A stretch of DNA of 64,000 bases, taken from the NCBI RefSeq assembly GCF_036971445.1, contig NC_091469.1, positions 136,028,001-136,092,000 on the forward strand, given 5' to 3'. The position numbers and the translations under genes were made by a program. Of the stretch, positions 7,255-63,535 are shown piece by piece; within the stretch, counting starts at the first letter, position 1; each line of letters begins with the position of its first letter. This DNA is from Narcine bancroftii. Taxonomy: Eukaryota. Below the pieces are notes generated by a model. The model did no database searches. It was not told where the DNA came from and saw only the letters and a list, made by a program, of their open reading frames with translations.

Positions 7255-7845
7255 TCCAGGACAGAAACCCAGCAAATATCTATGGCTAATTGGTGGAAAG
7301 TGTGCTGACCAGTGGCATCAAGGTCTGGTATGGAAACACCAATACTCCTGAGCGTAAAGCCCTCCATACTGCAGTGTGAACACAGCTCAGGATATCACAG
7401 GAAAAACCCTCCCAACTATTGAGTCCATCTGCAGGGAACACTACTGTTGGAGAGAAGCAGCAATCATCAAAGACCCTTACCACCTGGCATATGCTCTTTT
7501 CTCACTACTCCCATCAGGCAAGAGGTATAGGTGCCACGTGACTTGCACCACCAGGTTCAGGAACAGCTGCTCCCCTTCCACCATCAGACCCCTCAACAAT
7601 AAACTCAATCAGGGACTCGTTTAAGGATGTACATTTTTTGATTTTCTTTTTGTTCTCTATGTATTGCAGTTTATTTACATTCATTATCTGCTTACAGTTC
7701 TTTGTGTTTACATGTAAAACTGTGTGTACAGTTTATATTTTGCACTACCAATTAATGGTAATTCTGCCATGCCCACAGGAAATAAAGCAATCTCAGGGTT
7801 GTATGTGGTGTCATGTATGTGCTCTGACAATAAATCTGAAATCTA
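7255..7845 (+). mobile_element. Rex1/Babar LINE 3' fragment
   Basis: ORF 7376-7624 (AAIIKDPYHLAYALFSLLPSGKRYR..TTRFRNS) and the tail 'tctgacaataaatctgaaatct'. Confidence 0.85.
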
Positions 7846-8117: not shown

Positions 8118-8484
8118 CAGTGGCTTTCAAACTTTTTCTTACCACTCACATATCACCTTAAGTAATCCCAATGCCATAGATGCCCTGTGATCAGTAAGGG
8201 ATAATTTAAGGTGGTATGTGAGTGGAAAGACAAAAAGTTTGAAAACCACTGATTTAATCGTATCCAATTGACTCGTTATGTGCACGGTTTCATAACTCCA
8301 AAGGAAATGGGCCAATGACAATTTTTCTCAAGCAAAATATTTCAGTAACAATTGGCAGTCATTCTCAATCTTTTCCCCCCACTCACATAACATCTTAAGT
8401 AATCCCTTATCGATCACAGAGCACCTGTGGCATAGGGATTATTTAAGGTGGTACGTGAGTGCAAAAAAGTTTGAAAAACCACTG
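8118..8484 (+). mobile_element. hAT-type MITE with internal repeats
   Basis: Termini cagtggctttcaaac ... gtttgaaaaaccactg. A second copy lies in reverse at 20608-20948. Confidence 0.7.
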
Positions 8485-10221: not shown

Positions 10222-10878
10222 CCCCGCCATCTGATGCTGCTTGACCCACCAAGTACCTCCAGCAGTTTGACCATAGCTGCAGATTGCAAAATCTGCAATC
10301 AATTGTGTCTCCCCTGACTTCTCGGTGGCATGCTAGTGGATTTATTGGATGCCTTCGAAGGTTCCTTGGTCAATTGCTCACATTCCCCCACCATCTGATG
10401 CTGCTTGACCCACCAAGTACCTCCAGTAGTTTGACCATGGCTGCAGATTGCAAAATCTGCAATCAATTGTGTCTCCCCCGACTTCTCGGTGGCATGCTAG
10501 TGGATTTATTGGATGCCTTCCAAGGTTCCTTGGTCAATTGCTCTACATTCCCCCACCATCTGATGCTGCTTGACCCACCAAGTACCTCCAGTAGTTTGAC
10601 CATGGCTGCAGATTGCAAAATCTGCAATCAATTGTGTCTCCCCGACTTCTCGGTGGTATGCTAGTGGATTTATTGGATGCCTTCGAAGGTTCCTTGGTCA
10701 ATTGCTCTGCATTCCCCCACCATCTGATGCTGCTTGACCCACCAAGTACCTCCAGCAGTTTGACCATGGCTGCAGATTGCAAATTCTGCAATCAATTGTG
10801 TCTCCCCCGACTTCTCGGTGGTATGCTAGTGGATTGATTGGATGCCTTCGAAGGTTCCTTGGTCAATTGCTCTACATT
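10222..10878 (+). repeat. Tandem array, 4 x ~164 bp
   Basis: 'catctgatgctgcttgacccaccaagtacc' restarts at 10228, 10392, 10557 and 10721; the units are nearly identical. Confidence 0.95.
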
Positions 10879-12819: not shown

Positions 12820-15315
12820 GAAATGATCTATTTCAATGCAAGGAGCTTAGGGCATGCATTTGCACATGGAATTATGATGTCATTGATATTAGTGAGACTT
12901 GGTTGCAGGAGGGGTAGGCCTGGTAGCTCAATGTTCTGAGGCTCCGATGTTTCAGACGTGATAGAGGGGGAGAGATGAAGGGGAAGGAATGGCATTGCTA
13001 GCCAAGGAAAATATTACAGCTGTACATAGACAGAAGAGCACTGTGGACTCATCTACAGAGGCCATACGATTGGAACTAAAGAACAGGAAAGGTATGAGCA
13101 CACTAATAGGCTTGTATTATGAACCGCCCAATAGCCAAAAGAATTGGAAGTGCAAATCTGTCGGGAGACATCAGACCAATGCAAGGAACAAAGTGGTGGT
13201 AGTAAGAGATTTTAACTTTCAGTATATTGAATGGGTCTCCCATATTGTAAAAGGACTGGATGGTTTGGAGTTTGTCAAATGTGTACAGGAATGTTTTCTA
13301 AATCATTATATAGAGGTACTAGTGAGGGAGGATGCAATACTTGATCTCCTATTAGGGAATCAGGCAGGTCAGGTGGCAGAAGTCTGTTTAGGTGAGTATT
13401 TTAGGTCCAGGAGCAATCATTTCAATAGTTTCAAGTAAATTGTGGATAAGGATAGGCCTGGTTCTAAATGGGAAAAAGACAATTTTGAGGAAATGAGAAA
13501 GGATCTCAGAAGAGCTGTTTTCTGGAAAGGATGTGTCCAGCAAGTGAAAGGCCTTCAAAGGTGAAATATTGAGGGTGCAGAGTTTGAGTTTGCATGTTCC
13601 TATCAGAATTAAAGGCAACATTAACGGGCAGAGGGAACCTTAGGGATATTGGTGATATGATTAAGTAGAAGAGAGAGGTGTATAATTGGAGCAAATCAGG
13701 TACTTGTGGACTATAGAAAATGTAAGAGAAGGAAATCAGGAAGGCAAAAAAGAAGACATCAGGGTCCTTTGGCAGATAATGTGAAAGTAAATCCAAAGAG
13801 TTTCTACAAGTATATTAAGAGTAAGAGGATAACAAGGGACAAAATTGGTCCCTTAGAGGATCGAGGGGGGGGGGGGCAACTATGTGTGGAGCCTCATGAA
13901 ATGGGGGAGATCTTAAATAGATTTTTTTTGGATCAGTATTTACTCAGGAAACTAGGCATAGTGTATATGGATGAAAGGTAAACAAATAGAAATGTCATGA
14001 AAAATATGGAGATTAAGTGAATAAAGGTAGACAAATATGGGCCAGATATGATATTGCCTTGGACCATGAGGGAGACAAGTATTGAAATTGCAGGGCCCCT
14101 GAGAGCTATATTCAAAATATCCTTAGCCATGAGAGAGGTGCTCATGTTGTACCACTGTTTAAGCAAGGTTCCAACAGTAAACTGGGTAACAATAGGCCAG
14201 TGAGCCTGACATCAGTAGTAGGTAACTTAATGGAAGGAGTTCTGAGTGATAGGATATACAGGTATTTGGACAGCCATCGGGTGATTAAGGACAGTTAGTA
14301 TGATTTTGTATGTGGTAGGTCAGGTTCAATGAATCTTGTAGAGTTATTTGAGGAGCAGAATAACCAAGAAGGCAGATGAAGGAAAGGCTGTGGATGTTGT
14401 CTACATGGACAAGGCCTTCGACAAGACACTAGGTATCCATAGAGTGACTGTAAATGGGATTCAAAATTGGCTGAGTGGGGAAAAAAAGAGTGTGGTAGGG
14501 GAGAATGAGCCAGTAAATGGATGATGGAGTTTAATGCGGACAAGTGTGATATATTGCATTTTGGAAGAGAAAATCAAGGAAGGATGTCCACATAAATGGT
14601 AGGGCACTGAGGAGTGCAGAGGAGCAAAGAGACCTGGGGATAGAGGTACATTGTTCCATGAAGCTAGTGTCGCAGGTGGACAGGGCTGTAAAGAAAACTT
14701 TTGGCATCATAGCCTTTATAAATCAAAGTATTGATTATAGGAGTTGGGATGTTATGTTGAAGTTATTTAAGATATTAGTGAGGCCAAATTTGGAATATTG
14801 TGTCCAGTTCTGGTCACCTAGCTACAGGAAGGATATCAATAAGATTGAAAAAGTGCAGGAAAGATTTACTAAGATGTTGTGGGGTCTTCAGGAGTTGAGT
14901 TACAGGAAAAGATTAAACAGATTCGGTCTTTATTCCTTGGAACAAAGAATAAGGGGAGATTTGCTGGAGGTTTCCAAAATTATGAGGGGTATAGACAGAG
15001 TAATTGTGAATAGGCTGTTTGAACTTAGATTATGAGAGATAAATACGAGAGGATGAGTTTAGTATGCAAGGGGAAATGTTTAGGGGGATCTTTTTCATTT
15101 GGAGAATGGTAGGAGTGTGGAATGAGTTGCCAACTGATGTGGTGGGTGCAGACTCTATCTTAAGCTTTAAGAATAAATTGGATAGATCCATGGATAGGAG
15201 AGATCTGGAGAGTTATGGAATGGGAGCAGGTTATCAGGACTAGCTGAACAGTGGTTGGGGCAGACTAGAAGGGCCGAATGGCCTGTCTTCTGCGCTATAG
15301 CATCCTATGATTATA
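12820..15315 (+). mobile_element. CR1/HER1 LINE, long decayed ORF2 (APE + RT)
   Basis: Motifs ISETWL, DFNF, ILDLLL, NPKSFYKYIK and LVRPNLEYCVQFWSP..IEKVQERFTK, plus the tail 'gggccgaatggcctgtcttctgcgctatag'. Many stops and frameshifts. Confidence 0.9.
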
Positions 15316-15823: not shown

Positions 15824-16713
15824 AGTTAAGAGCCCAGAGGACGACCCCCCCCCCCCAAATCCCCAGCAGTAATAGATATGCACCACGACAAAAGGTGACT
15901 TGAACAAAAGTTGCTTTTAATTATCTTTGAACATGAAAATAGAATCAAACTTTAACTTCTCTCTATTGAATCAACTAACCCCCTTCTAATTCTAAGCACA
16001 CGCGAGTGTAATGTGTGCGCGCAAGATCAGCAAAATCCTTTGGTTCGCAGTCCAGTCTCACTGGTTGCAGGCAATTCTTATACTGTTCACAGAAGTTAAC
16101 ATTAATAAAGCTCACCAGGCTTTGGTGCTTAACAGGTAAATGGTTACCACTCAGGAGGGTTCTTGTTGGTTTTCAGAAAGAGAGTTTTTCTTGTTCCGGG
16201 ACATCCACAACTGATTCCTTTTTAATCAGCCACTCCAGTGTCTTGCTGATGAAACTTGTCCCCTTCAGGGTTTTCCAGATAAAACCTCTCTTTCAGGTCA
16301 CCACAGAGTTCTTTTCTGTTTCTCCTATTCCAAGGAAAACACTGGACAGCTAGTCCTCTCCTTTGACCAGGCCGTCTTCCAAAGCTTGCCAGCTTGTCCC
16401 TCTGGAACCAATGTATGTGTCTCTCCTCTCCCTCTCTCACCCCCTTTAACTCTGAGAGCAAAGCTTGTTTGTTTTCTGTTCTCTGCCTGCAAAAATCACA
16501 TGACCCTCCAGACAGTAAGTTCTGTTATCCAGACAAAGCTGCTACTGCCTGTTGTTACATTTGTTGCCTTTTGCAAATGACCATCCATCATGAGTCTGTG
16601 CTCTCTTGCAAAAGCTCCTGCAAAAATTCTGTGTTTTAAAGTGTTTGTGTGTGACCTGCCCTTACAAACCTTTCCCAATTTATCTCCTAAACACCTCTAT
16701 ATACTCTATCACA
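15824..16713 (-). mobile_element. Solo LTR (family A)
   Basis: Reverse-complement homolog of 25327-26417 and 40825-41806. Flanks gtac/gtaa look like a degenerate 4-bp TSD. Confidence 0.8.
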
Positions 16714-25773: not shown

Positions 25774-26417
25774 GTGTTTCAGCCAGCAAGAGCTGCTGGA
25801 ACTGAAACAGGAAAAGTTGGCAAGAAACCCCAGTGTGGAAGACTGCCTAGTCACAGCCCTTGTGGTTCATGCAAGAGGAGAGGACTGGCTATCTCATGTT
25901 TCACTTGGAATAAGAGAAACAGAAAGGTACTCTGTGGTGACCTGAAAGAAAGAGGTTATCATCTGGAGAACCCTGACGGGACAAGTTTCATCAGTAAGAC
26001 AATGAGGTGACTGATGGAATGATGGAAGTACATCAGTTTTGGATGTCCTGGAACAACACAACTCTCTCTGAAAGCCAACAAGAACCTTCCTGAGCGGTAA
26101 CCATTTACCTTTTGAGCACCAAAGCCTGGTGAACTTTATAAATGTTAAATTCTGTGCACAGTATAAGAATTACATGCAACCGGTGAACTTGGAGGAATGA
26201 GAAGTGAGATTAGACTGTGAACCAAAGATCTTTTCTGAACATACACACACATTCCATACACATGTGAAGGGCGTTAAGTTAGGTTAAGTAACTTAAGTTA
26301 AAGTTTGATCCTGTTTTCATGTTTAAAGATAATTAAAATCAACTTTTTTTAAAGTAAGCGTTTATCTTGATGATTTTCTGTTGCTGCTGCGTTTTGGGGT
26401 CCTCTGGGCTCATAACA
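25327..26417 (+). mobile_element. Solo LTR (family A)
   Basis: TG...CA termini (tgtgacagag..cataaca) with a 4-bp TSD AATT. Contains a (GA)n tract at 25689-25769 and a 91-bp insertion. Confidence 0.9.
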
Positions 26418-30969: not shown

Positions 30970-31104
30970 TAGGGTTGTAACTCCTTGAACCCTTCAAACC
31001 AGTTCCCGCAACTTCACCACCACAAATTGATGTTGTGAGTAGGGTCAATTTGTGGTGGTGAGGTTGAGGAACAGATTGAAAGTGTTCAAGAAGTTTCAGG
31101 CCTA
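30970..31104. other. Long imperfect hairpin (palindromic MITE relic or pre-miRNA candidate)
   Basis: A 22-bp inner stem (31009-31030 with 31045-31066, one T.G pair), a 14-nt loop, and imperfect pairing out to TA...TA ends. Confidence 0.8.
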
Positions 31105-39489: not shown

Positions 39490-39708
39490 NNNNNNNNNNN
39501 NNNNNNNNNNNNNNNNNNNNNNNNNNNNNNNNNNNNNNNNNNNNNNNNNNNNNNNNNNNNNNNNNNNNNNNNNNNNNNNNNNNNNNNNNNNNNNNNNNNN
39601 NNNNNNNNNNNNNNNNNNNNNNNNNNNNNNNNNNNNNNNNNNNNNNNNNNNNNNNNNNNNNNNNNNNNNNNNNNNNNNNNNNNNNNNNNNNNNNNNNNNN
39701 NNNNNNNN
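39490..39708. other. Assembly gap (219 N)
   Basis: Run of N. Confidence 1.
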
Positions 39709-40824: not shown

Positions 40825-41806
40825 TATGTCAGAGTAGATAGATATGTTTTTGGGAGATAAATTGGGAAAATTTTGTTAGAGTAGGTTACATAGAAACACT
40901 TTAAATCAGATCTTATTTGAAATACTGGAGTTCTGTTAATGCTAAACATATCGCGCCTCACAGCTTTTTCAAGAGCTTTGGAGAATGCCCAAGTGACTTC
41001 ACTAATGGATTGTTGTTTACAAAAGGCAACAAATGAAAAATTTTTTTGGAGCCACCTTCTGTCTAGAGTAGAGCTTGTTGTTCTAAGAGAGTCATGCGAT
41101 TTTGCAAGCAGAGAGAGTCAAACAGGCTTTCTCTCAAAGAGATGACTTGAACAGTGTTACAGCCAGCAGAAGCAGCTGGGACTGGAACAGGTCAAGCTGG
41201 CAAGCTTGTGGAAAACCCCATTTGGAAGATGGGTTGTGAGTTATTATTTTAGTCTGGTCAAAGCCCTCGTGGTTCATGCAAGAGGAGAAGACTGCCTGTC
41301 TAATGTTTCATTTGGAATAAAGGAAACAAAAGGAAATCTGTGGTGACCTGAAAGAAAGAGGTTATCATCTGGAGAACCCTGAAGGGACAAGTTTCATCAG
41401 CAAGACACTGGAGTGGCTGATTAAAAAGGAATCAGTTGTGGATGTCCTGGAACAACAAATCTCTCTCTGAAAACTGACAAGGTAACCATTTACCTTTCAA
41501 GCACCAAAGCCTGGTGAACTTTATAAATGTTAAATTCTGTGCACAGTATAAGAATTGCCTGCAACCAGTGAACTTGGAGGTATGAGAAGTGAGATTGGAT
41601 TGTGAACCAAAGAATTTTTCTGAACATACGCATACACATGTGCTTAGAATTAGAAGGGGATTAAGTTAGGCTATTTAAGTCAATAGCGATAAGTTTAATT
41701 ATATTTTCATGTTTAAAGATAATTAAAAGCTACTTTTGTTTAAGTAACCATTGTCTTGGTGAGTATCTATTGCTGCTGGGTTTTGGGGTCCTCTGGGCTC
41801 GTAACA
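40825..41806 (+). mobile_element. Solo LTR (family A)
   Basis: Homologous to 25327-26417; ends ctctgggctcgtaaca; 4-bp TSD GAGA (40821-40824, 41807-41810); splits a minus-strand SINE. Confidence 0.9.
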
Positions 41807-48395: not shown

Positions 48396-48923
48396 ATCAC
48401 TTTCAGGTGGAATGCAGATCCGGAGCTGGCTGCTGGTGTCTGCGAAGGGACGTTCAGGTGGCAGCACTGAAGGCGGAGTTCTGCCACCTGAAAGGTCCAC
48501 AGCAGGGAGAGGTGCCACAGAGCAAAGGGCGACTCCTGAGTCGGGGCAGGGGCAGCTACCTGACAGCCCCCCGGCGTGGGACTACAGGGCTGGAGCGGCC
48601 GGTGCAGGAATTTGGGGCCCGAAGTCCAGCGCCAGCCACTCCAGCCCTGACATCCCATGCCGGGGGGCTGTCAGGCGTGGGGAGTTGGGCTATCAGGCGT
48701 GGGGAGTTGGGTCACCGGCTGACTGTCATCAGCTAGCCGTTTTGCCTTGCTGCTTTCAGGTGCCTAGGGGGAGCGCTCCGAAGCGGAGAATATACCTCCC
48801 TGAGGTGGGTTGAGTAAGTGCTCCTCGGGGACAGGTTTTCCGCTCTCAGGTGGCCTCCCAACAGCTACATTCGGGTATTTTAGGCGACTTTACATTCGGG
48901 AATTCTGGCCACCTGAAAGCGGC
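48396..48923. mobile_element. PIF/Harbinger-like MITE
   Basis: Inverted termini cactttcaggtgg ... ccacctgaaagcgg, with internal copies of the same motif; GC- and CpG-rich. Confidence 0.65.
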
Positions 48924-53714: not shown

Positions 53715-54325
53715 TAGAAACATAGAAAACGTATAGCACAATACAGGCTCTCCGGCCCACAAAGTTGTGCCAAAAATGTTCCTACCTTAGAAATTACTAA
53801 ACTTTCCCATATCCCTCTATTTTTTTAAACCTCCATGTACCTATCCGAAAATCTCTTGAAGGACCCTAACATACCACTCTCTGTTTAAAAAAACCGTACC
53901 CTTGACATCTTCTCTATACCCAGTTCCCAGCATCTTAAGCCTGTGTCCTCTTGTGGCAACCATTTCAGATGGGGGAAAAAGCCTCTGACTATCTACACGA
54001 TCAATACCTTTCATCATCTTAAACACCTCTATCAGGTCACCTCTCAACCTCTGCTGCTCCAAAGAGAAAAGGCCGAGTTTACTCAACCTGTTTTCATAAG
54101 GCATGCTTCCTAAACCAGGCAAAATTCTTGTAAATCTCCTCTGCACCCTTTCTATGGCTTCCACATCCTTCCAGTAGTGAGGTAACCAGAACTCCGCACA
54201 GTATTCCAAGTGGGGTCTGATCAGGGTCCTAAAAAGCTGCAACATTACCTCTCGCCTCCTAAATTCAATTAACAGATTAATGAAGGCCCATATACCATAT
54301 GCCTTCTTAACCACAGAATCATTCT
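53715..54325 (-). mobile_element. CR1 LINE 3' fragment
   Basis: LFRTLIRPHLEYCAEFWLP..IERVQRRFTR; tail (catagaaa)2. Confidence 0.9.
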
Positions 54326-55312
54326 GATTCATAACCAACCTATTAAACAGCAATTGTTTAGAACATGGAAGGAAGACAGAGGAGCCAGGAGAGACACATA
54401 CAAACACAGGAAGAACAAGCAAACTCCACACAGAAAACTCCAGAGGTCAGGATTGAACCGGTTGCTGGAGTTGTGAACTAGCAGCTCTATCAGTTGTGTG
54501 ACTGTGCCCCTACTGTAATGAATGAATGAATGAATTTAAAAGAAGACAGCTAAGCTTTGTGAAATATGTGAATGAGAGAGGGGCATTGGAGAAGGAAATG
54601 AAAAGATTAAAAAAATAAGTTCTTTTCCATCATGATGCATTTTGGGGCATCTTCTTCATCCACAGACTTCACCATATTCTGCAGAATGTAACAGTCATAG
54701 AACATGGATTCAATTTGCTATAGTTAAACAAATAGACGTTTCTGTCAAATACAGAATAGAATTTCCACCTGCACAGTGGTGCCATTGTTTTCCAACTAAA
54801 AGAATAGAGTGTCACTATGTCTGTCTTGCTTATTTATTTTGGCAGTTTGGAAGACTCTCACCTTGTTTCCAAAGTATGAAAGTGTTGAGCTATTAACAGT
54901 CAGTTCTTCAAATGAGAAATAAAAGCCCACACCATTATTTTTGTTTTGATAGCCCATATGCTCAATATTCTGGAAGACCTTTGTCCATCTGTTGAAACTT
55001 AACCGAGATGAAATAGTCATTTAATTGTCCTTATATTCATTCCCACTGTGTAAAAATGACATTAATTCAAAATAAATTATCATAGTTACGTGATTTATGT
55101 TTGAGACATTTTATTGGATGCTACATAAATACAATACTTAATTTCAATCATTTGCCTGGTCATCAGCTGAACTATATATCAAATTGTCATTCATAATTAT
55201 CAGACCGCTATGTTGTCCTCACTCATGGTATATGACAAGATACATTTTATTTCAAGGATGCAATCCACAGAATATGCATCATCCTTTTTATGAGCCCTTA
55301 TTTTCCCACATG

Positions 55313-55686: not shown

Positions 55687-56368
55687 TATTCTTGTTGAGG
55701 CTTAAATGTTGATTCCCCCTAGAGAAATGTGCAAAGCTGGCCAAGGGTGCATTGAGGTCTACGGCAGATGCCATCTAATAGACTCTACACATAGCCCTGG
55801 AATACCTGGACAGCAAAGATGGAGACATCGACTACAGTTTGGCATTCAACATCACCATCCCCTCAAAATTGATCAGTAAGTTGACCTGTGACTCAACATC
55901 GCATCGCATCTTGGATTTTCAGAACACAATCAGTGAGGATTGGTAAGAACATTTCCTCCACAATCTCCATCAGTACCAGAGCACCATAGGGCTGTGTTCT
56001 TAGCTCCCTGCTCTACTCGCTTCACACCTATGATGTGAGGCTCAGTTCGACAACAACACCATCTACAAATTCGCTGATTATACAATGGTAGTGGGTTGTT
56101 TAAAAGGGGAGATGAGTCAGCACACAGAAAGGAGATGGAAAATTTGCCTGAATGGTGCACCAACAACAACCTCACACTCAATATCACCAAATCCAAGGAG
56201 CCGATTGTTGACTTCAGGAAGGGAAAACTAGGGGCGTGGCAAGATGGCGTAGGGAACAGACGTGCCTTCCAGACCTCTCCTGACTCTGATTTATTGTTTT
56301 GTCTTTAAGTGCCCGTTAAAGTTCTTTTAAAAGTTTATAAATAATAAGAGGTGTTGGATTAGTGCCTA

Positions 56369-57767
56369 ATGGTTTATATGCAAAAAAAAAGGTAAAAGAA
56401 AACATCAACAGACTGTTAAAAAACTATATTTTCCGAAATTGTCTGAGCCTACTTGTTTACAAGAAGCCAGGATTCAGCGTAGAATGGATCCAGAGGAAGA
56501 CGTACAGAGTTCGGCATTGAAACTCCGTTTTAAGCCGGTGAGGCTCTTTGAAGGTCGCATTCAACAGCTTTCAGACCAAAGAGCTGGACGGGTGCCAGTA
56601 TTTCACACAACGGCCACTGTGAGTGCTGTTACTCAGACTTTGACAGTTGAATCAGCTGGGGCACCACCAGCTGGAGTGTTAAAGAGCTGTCATTCGACTG
56701 CTACAGTGGTGGCGCTGCAAAATGCATCTTCAATTACAACAGTTTTTCTAGACATCGATTCAGTGAAGATGATTAAAGAGATTTGGCTTAAAGATAACTC
56801 TGATCTTCAGTCTCCTGGCATTGCTGGGGGGACTTTGAGAGGGATTTTTATATGAAGTCAAACTGCTAGAAAAGATACTAAATTAAGAGAAGGGACAGAA
56901 GATCCCGTGGTCTCTAAGGAACAGCAAGACCCCATTATGCCTGAATCTACTTCTGTTGAAATGTCTGTTAAGGATCCTGAAGATAAGATATATTCAGTAT
57001 CGAGTCACTTAGCTAATTTTATGAACCTGTTTATTTCCAAGATTAATGCGATGGCAGAGGTCATTAATGGAGCTTTTAAGCTTGAAACCATTGAAAGATT
57101 TGAAATGTGTGATCAAGGTTTAGTCGATGCACAGGATCAACTGCAAGATGAAAATAGAATAATTGAAACATTGCAGATCCAAAATAAAAATTTAGCAAAA
57201 AAGGTTGATTATTTGGAGAATCAATCTAGACAGAACAACGTGAAAATTGTTGGTTTGCCAGAAGGCATAGAAGGACCAGATCCAAGAAAATTTTTTACTG
57301 AATGGATTCCATGAGTGTTAGGACAGGATAAATTCCCTGAAGGTTTAATACTGGAACGTGCTTATAGGGTTTTAAGAAGAAAATCTTTTTCAGGACAGAA
57401 TCCAAGATGGATCCATTGTTTAAACTATTGTGACAGAGAGACAATTTTATGTATGGCTATTAGAAATGCCCAGCAAAATAGATCTCCTTTGATGGTTCAG
57501 AATAATCCTGTTTTCTTCTATCAAGATTTGAGTCAAGAAATTATGTTTCAACGACGCAAATTTAATTCTGTGAAAGAACGGTTGTGGAAAAAAAGACATA
57601 AGGGAACATTCAGGTATTCTGCAGTACTGAAGATTTTTTAGGATGGAAATTAGCCAAAGTTCTTTGACAATCCTAAAGAGGTTATGGACTTTGCTTAGTC
57701 TCTACCAATCATTCAGTTTCAGGAACGATGTAGTTCTTCAAGGTCTCCAAAGAAAGTAGAGATGTAA
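56369..57767 (+). pseudogene. L1 ORF1p (coiled coil-RRM-CTD), disabled by in-frame stops
   Basis: ORFs 56439, 56907 and 57315 share one frame. Motifs LENQSRQNNVKIVGLPEGIEG, LERAYR, FFYQDLS and YSAVLKI. Confidence 0.9.
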
Positions 57768-57981
57768 GGTGGGATCCAGATTTTTAAAAGAAATGGAAGC
57801 AATGGTGACCGAAGTGGTAACGTTGATTTAAAAAAATAAATTTTTTATCTTTTTTTTGAGAAATGTTTAAATAGTTTAAATAATGATGATATTTTATTGT
57901 AATTGAGAGGGAATTATGAGGTTTTTTTTCTCTTTCTTTTCTCTTTTTGAGTTTTTTTTCTCTTTTTTCTTTCTTTTTTAA

Positions 57982-58191
57982 GAGGATGATGTCACAGAAG
58001 ATAATAAGTCAAAAATTGAGGATGTTGAATTAGATGAAGAGGAAGATGAGTGGAAAGGTGATAAGAAGAAAAAGAAGAAAATTAAGAACAAATACATTGA
58101 GGGAGAAGAGTTCAATAAAATTAAGTTAATTTCGATAGAGAATTTTGAAGATGTTATAAATGAAGAATATGGAGAATTTTATAAGAGTTTG
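57982..58191 (+). pseudogene. HSP90AA1: Captured HSP90-alpha coding fragment (charged linker to start of middle domain)
   Basis: 70 stop-free codons [70 protein letters not shown]. They align without gaps to HSP90 [62 protein letters not shown] favours alpha over beta (QEEY). Confidence 0.9.
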
Positions 58192-59964
58192 AACTTTTTT
58201 TTCTTTTTTTATATAAGGGGAGGGGAAGGGAATAAAAAGTTTATCTGATTGTTTTTCTAAGGGATGTTTTTGTTCTCTCGATAAATTATAAAGGAAACTT
58301 GGTATTAATGGAAATTCTGTATTTATGTATTATTAATTATGATTTTTTTGTATAACAGATATGTGGTTGATATATGATTTTAATATTTGAACTTAGTTTT
58401 AAAGTGGATTTCATTTGTTAAATACATGTATTATGTTTGATTTAAATATATGTTTAAGGGTATTATTTTAGTATTGATTTTTTTTGTTAGTAAATTAGAT
58501 GATTAATGTTGTGTTATAATTATTGGGGGGGTTAATTTGTGTAGTTTAATGATGTAGTATTCTAATTTTTATTATCTTATTTTTTATTATTTCTTTAAAT
58601 GTAATTTTTATTTTATTCATGTCATAAAATTTTAAATAAAGTTTAAAAAAAAAAGGAAGGGAAAACTAGAGGTGTATGATCCATTAGTCATTGAGGGATC
58701 AGAGGGGAGAGTTCTTGGAAATCCACTATCTATCAAGGATCTTTCCTAGACCCCACACACAAATTGTATCATGAAGAAAGCATGTCAGTGACTTGACTTC
58801 CTTAGAAGTTTGTGGAAGAATGGTATGACATTGGAAACCCTGGCAAATTTCTACAGAGGTGTGGTGGAAAGTTTGCTGTCTGGCTGCATAATGATCTGGC
58901 ATGGAGACACCAATACCCCTGAGTTTAAAACTCTGCAAAAGGTAGTGGACACAGCGCATGGCATCACAGATAAAACTCTCCCATCATAGAAAACATCTAC
59001 AGGGAACACTGCCATCAGAGAGCAACAGGAATCATCAAGGATTCACATCACCCAGCACATGCTCTGTTCTCACTGCTACCATCAGGAAAAAGGTATAAGT
59101 TCCATAATACGCGCACCAACAGATTCAGGTACGTCTGTTATCCCTCCACCATCAGACATCAAACTCAATAAGACACTCACTTTAGGAGTTACTTTTGCAC
59201 TTTATTGATTTTCTCTGTTTTCCACAGTCAATTTGTTTACAAGTGTATGTTGAGTGCAGGTTTTTGCACTACCAATTAGTGGTAATTCTGCCTTGCCACT
59301 AGGGAAAAGAGTCTCAGGATTGTATGTGATGTCATTTATTTATTCTGTCAATAAATCTGAAAATTTGGAATACACCCAATGTCTTTTGTTGTTATTCTCT
59401 GGGATATGGATAAAGATCTAACAGCTCATTAATGTCTGAAGAAGAAGATGCGCCTTGCTTTGATCCTCAAAGCTCATGAGAATGCTTCCTCCACACCACA
59501 GAGTTCATTCTGCCCACAAACTTCACAGATCAGATGGATGAAAGTTTCACGTGCCAGGGATAAGTTGCAAAGTCTTGTATCACCTATGTATTAGGATGTA
59601 AATATGGAGGAGCCTTGATCAGCCTACTTCCTTCCTGGGAAGGAATAGTAAAACACAAAATGCTCAAGGAACTCAGCAGGTCAGCAGTGTCCATAGGAGA
59701 AAAAGAGATTTTACCAATATTTCACTCCTGATGCCTTCGTCAAGGTATGAGCAAGAATCAGGTAGACACTGAATACAAGGTGGGCTGAATGGAGAGTTAA
59801 ACTTGACATCTCAACATAAATTCTGCCTGCTCAATAAAAATTAGAGCAATTTTCCATGACATTAGGGGAAGTAGTTCCCTTGTTTGCAGTTGTAATAATT
59901 TCAAAAAGAGAGTACATTTATCTCATATAGACCTTTATGATAAAGGTTTTCAGATTATATTCTG

Positions 59965-62314: not shown

Positions 62315-63535
62315 AATAGAACATTACAGCACAGTACAGGTCCTTCTGCCCTTGATGTAGAGCCGACCACTATAAACCTAGTCATCAATCTAAATACTCC
62401 CTACCTCACACTCATAGCCCTTTATTTTTCTTGTATCCATGCGCCTGTCCAGGAGTCTATAAAATATCCCTATTGTACCAGCCTCCACCATCACACCAGG
62501 CAACATATTCCAACCACCACTATTTTCTGTGTAAAAAAATGTACTCCTGGCCTCTCTTTGAAATGTTTCTCCCCTCACCTTGTGCAGATGTCCTCTGGTG
62601 CTTGCTACTCTCGCCCCAGAAAAAAAGTGCTGACTCTCCATCCTTTCTCTGCCTCTCCTAATCTTGTAGACCTCTATGAAGTCATCTTTCATCCTCCTTT
62701 GGTCCAGAGAAGCCCTAGCTCTGCTAACCTTGCCTCATAAGGCAACATCCTTGTAAATCTCTACTGCACCCTTTCCATAGTTTCCACATCCTTTCTGTAA
62801 TTAGGTGATAAGAACTAAACACATATTCCAAGTGTGTTCTAACCAGAGTTTTATAGTGCTGCAACATTATCTCATGATTCTTGAACTCATTTCCCCAACT
62901 AATGAAGGCCAGCATATCATCACCTTCTTAACTACCCTATCGACCTATGCAACAATCTTGAATTTGGCCCCAAAATCCCTCTTTTCTTCCACACTATTAA
63001 GAATCCTGCCATTTTTCAAAAATGTATCACTTCACACTTCTCCAGATTGAACTCCATCCACCACTTCTCTGCACAACTCTGCATGCTGTCCATATTCTGC
63101 TGTAACTTATGACAACCTTTTACATTATTCATGGAACCTCCAACATTGTGTCATCTGCAAATTTACTGACTCATCCTTCCACTTCCGTCCAGGTCATTTA
63201 TAAAAATCACAAAGAGCAGGAATCCCAGGACAGATCCCTGTGGAAATCCACTAGTCACTGACCTCCTGGCAGAATACACTTAATTTACTACTACCCTCTG
63301 CTTCCTACAAGCAAGCCAATTCTGAATTCACACAGTTAGGGTTCCATGGATCCCAAACATCATAACATTCTGACTGAGTCTACCACAGTGGACCTTGTCA
63401 AATGCTTTACTAAAATACATGTACACCATACCTACTACTTTACCTTCATCAATTTATTTTGTCACTTAAAAAAACTCCATTAGGATCACATGGCATGACT
63501 TGACCCTGACAAAGCCATGCTGACTATCCCAGAGA
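62315..63535 (-). mobile_element. CR1 LINE RT to 3' fragment
   Basis: Reverse of FSKAFDKV, SKFADDT and YKTLVRTHLEY motifs, plus a CR1 tail. Confidence 0.9.

Follow-up and report, generated by a model that had tools for sequence, protein, structure and literature searches.

A probable ORF1-only L1 family of the electric ray Narcine bancroftii carries a fragment of host hsp90-alpha

Half-L1 (HAL1) elements are derivatives of the long interspersed nuclear element (LINE) L1 that contain only its first open reading frame (ORF1), and they have originated several times in mammals (PMC5753468, PMC5786205 and PMC3627910, citing Smit 1999; Bao & Jurka 2010). Here we analyzed an element of 2,422 bp located at positions 56232-58653 of a 64,000-nt stretch of DNA from the electric ray Narcine bancroftii (contig NC_091469.1, positions 136,028,001 to 136,092,000 of the forward strand), hereafter called the window. 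We found that this element belongs to a multi-copy family with an L1-clade ORF1, and that a coding fragment of the host hsp90-alpha gene is embedded in its 3' part. In our view, the family is probably a non-autonomous, ORF1-only (HAL1-like) derivative of an electric-ray L1 that is mobilized in trans and acquired its hsp90 piece from mRNA by template switching.

The element is bracketed by two exact 16-bp repeats (Table 1). Exact, non-low-complexity pairs of 16-mers spaced by 0.5-7 kb occur five times in the whole window, the target-site duplication (TSD) of the element being one of them. The 5' end opens with a G-run followed by a AAGATGGC core, which we take to be a YY1-like motif, and the 3' end consists of an AATAAA signal and an A tail. 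The perfect TSD, the 5' motif, the signal and the tail are all present as the original prediction, made from the letters of the window alone, had described them. A YY1 site is conserved in many L1s (PMC8535693). The insertion target, TC/AGGA, fits loosely the L1 target motif TT/AAAA (bioRxiv 2025.02.02.635956). Within the 64-kb window no second copy of the element was found, and a search of Rfam returned no match for it.

The coding remnant of the element is an L1-clade ORF1 with a coiled coil, an RRM and a C-terminal domain (CTD). Compared with human ORF1p, it gave an E value of 0.002 in a single-sequence search and of 7e-35 with a profile. Likewise, all 11 Foldseek hits at E<=0.001 obtained with the model of P0008, a Narcine relative, were human L1 ORF1p. 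In the predicted structure of P0008, the first 158 residues are mostly disordered and precede a coiled coil (residues 159-249), the RRM and the CTD. Most ORF1 relatives have ~290-300 aa and are thus shorter than the window family by an N-terminal extension of ~160 residues; this extension, already suspected from the sequence, is real. Pfam finds neither the window ORF1 nor a named Narcine L1 ORF1, so that its silence on the former is no evidence.

The window copy is dead. Instead of the one long ORF1 frame that had been announced, we found a frame shifted by an extra base in the A-run 56382-56390 and broken by five stops (56853, 57312, 57639, 57651 and 57696) ahead of the stop at 57765 where P0008 ends. 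Two of these stops (56853 and 57312) occur in the window copy only. The stop at 57639, which, judging by the predicted structure of P0008, cuts off the final strand and helix of the CTD, is shared by the window copy and the Narcine models P0001, P0004 and P0009, whereas P0008 is open up to the natural ORF1 stop. Past the present ORF1 stop, window positions 57737-57830 align with the longer C-terminal tails of two older subfamilies (P0010 and P0288), which indicates that ORF1 was shortened stepwise.

All matches of the ORF1 similarity search (7/7) were N. bancroftii gene models. Six close ORF1 models (P0001, P0002, P0004, P0005, P0008 and P0009), located on five Narcine contigs, are 88-93% identical where measured, and older Narcine ORF1 subfamilies were found at 65% and 42% identity. 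In an ORF1 tree built from 50 of 160 core sequences, the window copy groups with ten Narcine models in a single ladder-like clade (11 rows, support 98) nested in a larger clade with ray ORF1s. The four sequences with the 57639 stop fall inside a five-row clade (support 91), the sister P0008 being without it.

Then, we compared the element with all contigs of 4 of the 10 listed sequencing runs, among which X5 and X10 carry different organism labels. Summed contig depth is not a copy number, and we took it only as indicating "hundreds or more". In run X1, unique flank pieces were matched without differences at a depth of ~16, and the bins of the element, all 30 of them covered, sum to 14,000-93,000. 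In run X5, contig depths were 361 over 56800-57226 (7 differences), 381 for a contig that covers 58051 and 179 over 58210-58456, with other contigs at ~3. In run X10, three contigs have other flanks before 56231 and two have other flanks behind 58653, so that other copies have the same ends, the two ends being seen on separate contigs. Together, these data show that the element is a multi-copy family mobilized with TSD and poly(A) whose other copies end where the window copy ends. The chimera with hsp90 would have spread to at least hundreds of sites, an order of magnitude taken from read depth. No related loci were found in metagenome and viral contigs.

L1 ORF1 sequence is also included in the Narcine gene models P0004, P0005, P0007, P0288 and P0287 (GALNT6-like, GPR139, ZBTB11, TEFM and one unnamed), which suggests either frequent exonization or mis-prediction. 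In the stingrays Hemitrygon and Hypanus, the predicted proteins P0140, P0282 and P0283, which fall into one 90% cluster, have a TRIM-like RING/B-box N terminus fused to an apparently whole L1 ORF1 and are possibly a shared TRIM-ORF1 fusion gene.

The ~0.9-kb 3' region is T-rich, as stated in the original prediction, which had overlooked the 213 nt of host hsp90-alpha coding sequence inside it (57980-58192). The frame 57982-58191 matches the Pfam family HSP90 (PF00183) above cut-off and human HSP90-alpha at 6e-14. Among the full-length Hsp90 proteins listed, the best identity (73%) is to N. bancroftii HSP90-alpha (P0017), with residues 242-311 of which the piece aligns without indel (52/70 identical). 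Three states in these residues are private to Narcine among 16 chondrichthyans, and the element agrees with two of them as it stands and with the third via the shorter mutational path, which places the capture in the electric-ray line. Four contigs of run X6 part from the element at 58192 and continue with the five host HSP90 residues that follow; being true hsp90 sequence, they fix the 3' junction of the captured piece. In the same run, which we guess to be RNA, depth peaks on the hsp90 bins (21,000 and 31,000 versus 3,300 and 4,800 alongside).

The host fragment is present in multiple copies of the family. In the DNA runs X1 and X5, the depth on the hsp90 piece equals that of its neighbors, and over 57989-58199 a contig of run X10 has 3 differences in 211. 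Moreover, a second hsp90-bearing copy, located on a 494-Mb contig, is annotated as the alternative last exon of the REXO4 isoforms X1/X2 (P0133/P0014), in which hsp90-derived residues stand in place of the normal C terminus present in isoforms X3/X4. This copy matches window positions 58033-58245 and has the same hsp90 3' junction and the same 3' continuation as the window element. The piece is sense-oriented, which is more in line with template switching or RNA joining than with twin priming (bioRxiv 2025.02.02.635956). The idea that the T-tract is an inverted hsp90 piece left by twin priming was rejected, its score (10.6) being no higher than the mean of the shuffles (10.8). Today, the hsp90 piece is probably neutral cargo.

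The 3' part of the element is also severely depleted in C, with 4.7% C between 57770 and 58643, whereas the lowest C or G content among 1,206 other segments of equal length is 10%. In the hsp90 piece, nine of the 11 positions at which the host residue requires a C are now T, whereas the other obligatory bases were mostly kept (69/73 A, 31/36 G and 14/14 T); the contrast between C>T (9/11) and G>A (4/36) is significant (Fisher p 2e-5). CpG decay does not account for this loss, as 3/9 C>T sites are impossible as former CpG, none of the 9 now precedes G and the change is not mirrored by G>A. Most residue changes of the hsp90 piece recur in the REXO4 copy, so that the changes common to both copies arose in the master lineage before dispersal. 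The changes private to the window copy lean toward G>A over C>T, by ~11 to 6 (best 40 of 703 difference rows). APOBEC3 causes G>A on the sense strand (PMC9099904), and the reported new L1 mutations combine C>T with G>A (PMC7140322). We see an even chance that the C loss is due to a deaminase acting on RNA or on the non-template strand; selection for a C-poor 3' region is a somewhat weaker candidate.

Taken together, these observations would fit the following history. The master element would be transcribed from its own 5' end and polyadenylated at AATAAA, and ORF2p, the product of the second L1 frame (ORF2) of an autonomous L1, would copy its RNA by target-primed reverse transcription, leaving TSDs. 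The master lineage took up the hsp90-alpha coding sequence in sense within a U-rich tract, the likeliest route being a double template switch or an RNA-level join with hsp90 mRNA, and its non-coding 3' part lost most sense-strand C before dispersal, as the hsp90 piece shows.

No Pfam match to endonuclease (EN) or reverse transcriptase (RT) was found in the six frames of 57747-58653, and the claim that the window copy shows no trace of either was also upheld by scans for relics with three distant RT-bearing proteins. The acidic frame at 57982, a candidate for an ORF2 C-terminal relic, is Hsp90. Other candidates for hsp90 or RT/EN relics in the spacer and the 3' region reached C>T-tolerant scores of 7-12, close to the highest values of the shuffles, whereas the true fragment scored 81.8.

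The strongest competitor is an autonomous L1 family, composed of ORF1, a T-rich spacer, ORF2 and a 3' untranslated region (UTR) with hsp90, in which ORF2 went missing from the window copy, or from a minority of copies, through a deletion or a template jump between T-rich tracts. Several observations favor it or otherwise weigh against an ORF1-only family with a captured mRNA. The two tandem ~30-nt units of the T-tract resemble a possible deletion junction. No contig was seen that bridges ORF1 to the hsp90 piece, the T-tract 57922-57979 and 4 loose-end rows there lying outside the read comparison, and one X10 contig (record 15) departs from the window at 57903 with 277 further, unseen letters that could be ORF2. 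In run X1, the depth over the 3' bins exceeds that over the 5' ORF1 bins by a factor of 2-4, although summed read depth is no copy number. The search for ORF2 relics by tblastn and by a C>T-tolerant scan, which found none, had three distant RT-bearing proteins as its only queries. As for the capture, the hsp90 fragment contains no testable exon junction, so that RNA and DNA are both possible sources. As for the C loss, a uniform, lineage-wide C>T mutator is not visible in ORF1: its synonymous sites show only a mild C>T bias, and among its 35 lineage replacements C>T (7) is not in excess, next to 10 T>C and 5 G>A.

Nevertheless, we consider the autonomous family unlikely. A long L1 with the usual 5' truncation should favor its 3' end in depth, whereas the single-contig depths of run X5 are about equal for ORF1 (361) and the hsp90 piece (381), as fits a family without ORF2. 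The CTD-truncating stop at 57639 is common to dispersed copies, which points to movement in trans. Only 2% of the X1 and X5 contigs run on into unlike sequence, although the flanking repeat contributes much to this count. Also, a search of 5,563 long candidates gave 5 hits, none of them a Narcine model that combines ORF1 with RT; the sole Narcine hit was the ZBTB11 chimera, and this test is weak. ORF2 is thus likely absent family-wide, and the non-autonomy of the family is supported indirectly, by the X5 depth, the shared ORF1 stop and the missing ORF1-RT fusion models. Of the HAL1-type family in a cartilaginous fish that had been proposed, the multi-copy L1-ORF1 family inserting with TSDs is supported by the Narcine models and the shared ends, while its non-autonomy keeps this indirect support. 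The hsp90 piece itself, being short, placed between T-runs and devoid of its own TSD or tail, might be taken for a one-off repair patch or a nested retro-fragment of the window copy only; its depth in X1 and X5, the junction it shares with the REXO4 copy and the matching X10 contig make this extremely improbable.

Compatible with an ORF1-only family, but in our view quite improbable, is a capture with an anti-silencing role, in which antisense PIWI-interacting RNAs (piRNAs) from the element would target the mRNA of hsp90-alpha, a chaperone of the piRNA pathway. In mouse, fetal piRNA biogenesis depends on HSP90-alpha, which also keeps L1 protein in check (PMC4231750), and 8/9 host captures by Drosophila telomeric LINEs, some of them without ORF2, involve piRNA genes (PMC13534243). 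In the element, the captured isoform is indeed alpha, and two runs of 11 unchanged codons (33 nt) are left in the piece. However, the piece is no more than 89% identical to the host gene, and probably less; Drosophila captures at 79-82% no longer gave targeting (PMC13534243). Moreover, the copy in the element eroded away from the host gene instead of tracking it. Three of the ten Narcine-private HSP90 changes lie within residues 242-311 (5/13 in Heterodontus, at the protein level) and are shared by the element, so that they predate the capture and give no sign of host escape. Finally, hsp90 mRNA is very abundant, which makes a chance capture likely. The limited identity together with the lack of host escape led us to rate this role low. 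Equally doubtful is its extended version, in which an ORF2-less vertebrate L1 family captured hsp90-alpha as an anti-silencing device like TART-nxf2 and a sense-strand C-to-T process, opposite to that of APOBEC3, then erased the match. If true, the hsp90 piece, whose ancestor is known, would serve as a natural reporter of a so far undescribed editing defense against retrotransposons in cartilaginous fish.

Table 1. Features of the element and of the repeat that it interrupts (window positions).
Feature	Positions	Strand	Remarks
Left part of interrupted non-LTR (long terminal repeat) repeat, decayed, high-copy	55700-56215	+	presumably Rex1/Babar-like; left limit approximate
5' TSD, 16 bp	56216-56231	+	last G may be part of the G-run that starts the element; other copies begin at 56231 (run X10)
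5' UTR / putative internal promoter	56232-56368	+	AAGATGGC core, presumably YY1-like, 56241-56248; diverged contigs align over 56239-56468
L1 ORF1 pseudogene, ~465 codons	56369-57767	+	disordered N-terminal extension, coiled coil, RRM, CTD; A-run frameshift and five stops
C-poor spacer	57768-57921	+	first ~60 nt homologous to longer ORF1 tails of older subfamilies (P0010, P0288)
T-rich tract, two ~30-nt units	57922-57979	+	possible ORF2-loss junction; unbridged by read contigs
Captured host hsp90-alpha coding fragment	57980-58192	+	sense; residues 242-311 (charged linker / start of middle domain); C>T eroded
T-run and T-rich, C-poor (4% C) 3' region	58193-58644	+	AATAAA 58635-58640; junction and continuation same in REXO4 models P0014/P0133
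A tail, 9 A	58645-58653	+	tenth A is the first TSD base; other copies end at 58653 (run X10)
3' TSD	58654-58669	+	exact repeat of 56216-56231
Right part of the same interrupted repeat	58670-59362	+	PF09004 match, E 3e-6; 70%-identical copy at 7264-7841

The flanking repeat is of very high copy number, and its frame runs on across the empty insertion site; read contigs that skip the element also exist. Thus, the element does interrupt a high-copy repeat in frame, as the expected clean split of a Rex1 ORF implied, but this ORF was not intact, the two flanking frames read containing 6 and 3 stops. We assume the name Rex1/Babar for this repeat, the support from the sequence being the PF09004 match in the right flank. 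Elsewhere in the window, we noticed a tandem array of about four 164-bp units with 96-97% identity (10222-10878), three copies of a 550-680-bp repeat with 75-79% identity (15825-16362, 25774-26417 and 41154-41806), self-complementary stretches that are possibly similar to miniature inverted-repeat transposable elements (8118-8484, 30970-31104 and 48559-48675) and an assembly gap of 219 N (39490-39708). Decayed, partly interrelated LINE-like coding remains, which we presume to be CR1/L2-like, lie at 12965-15032, 53841-54446 and 62390-62935.

These findings would extend ORF1-only L1 derivatives to cartilaginous fish. They also present a LINE-derived family that has multiplied an internal stretch of an essential host gene to hundreds of sites; in REXO4, one such site has been annotated as an alternative last exon. 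Since the ancestor of the hsp90 piece is known, this piece is a record of the changes of the master element, including a sense-strand C loss that neither CpG decay nor APOBEC3-type editing explains, and the odd base composition of LINEs (PMC9099904, PMC7140322) becomes testable in one family. The family further offers a vertebrate test case for the capture of piRNA genes. Among literature titles, we found none that deals with a cartilaginous-fish HAL1 or with a LINE carrying hsp90; an entry may exist in Repbase or Dfam, which lay outside this search.

Compared with HAL1, the Narcine element similarly has only an L1-clade ORF1, its own 5' end, a poly(A) tail, a TSD and many copies, and HAL1 is likewise thought to use ORF2p in trans. 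However, the origins of HAL1 described in the sources cited above are mammalian, whereas the Narcine element belongs to a cartilaginous fish. Its ORF1 also differs by a long disordered N terminus and, in the youngest clade, by a shared stop that truncates the CTD. Further peculiarities of the element are its fragment of host coding sequence and the strong C depletion of its 3' part. With the Drosophila telomeric LINEs (TART-nxf2 and the piwi and aub captures; PMC13534243), it shares the multi-copy, LINE-derived nature, in some cases without ORF2, and the fragment of a piRNA-linked host gene. Those elements are of the Jockey clade and telomeric, with piRNA targeting documented, whereas the Narcine family is of the L1 clade and dispersed; moreover, in Narcine it is the copy in the element that diverged, not the host gene. 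The L1-mRNA and U6-L1 chimeric insertions (Law & Burns, bioRxiv 10.1101/2025.02.02.635956) also join a sense host RNA to L1. In these chimeras, the foreign RNA lies 5' of L1, and the 17 mRNA/lncRNA (long non-coding RNA) cases reported there are single insertions or a pair, whereas the host piece in Narcine lies inside the element and the chimera multiplied into a family. Finally, APOBEC editing of LINEs (PMC9099904) resembles the C loss in its strand-asymmetric, deamination-type changes, but APOBEC3 acts as G>A on the sense strand, whereas the Narcine family shows sense-strand C>T, extreme only in the non-coding 3' part.

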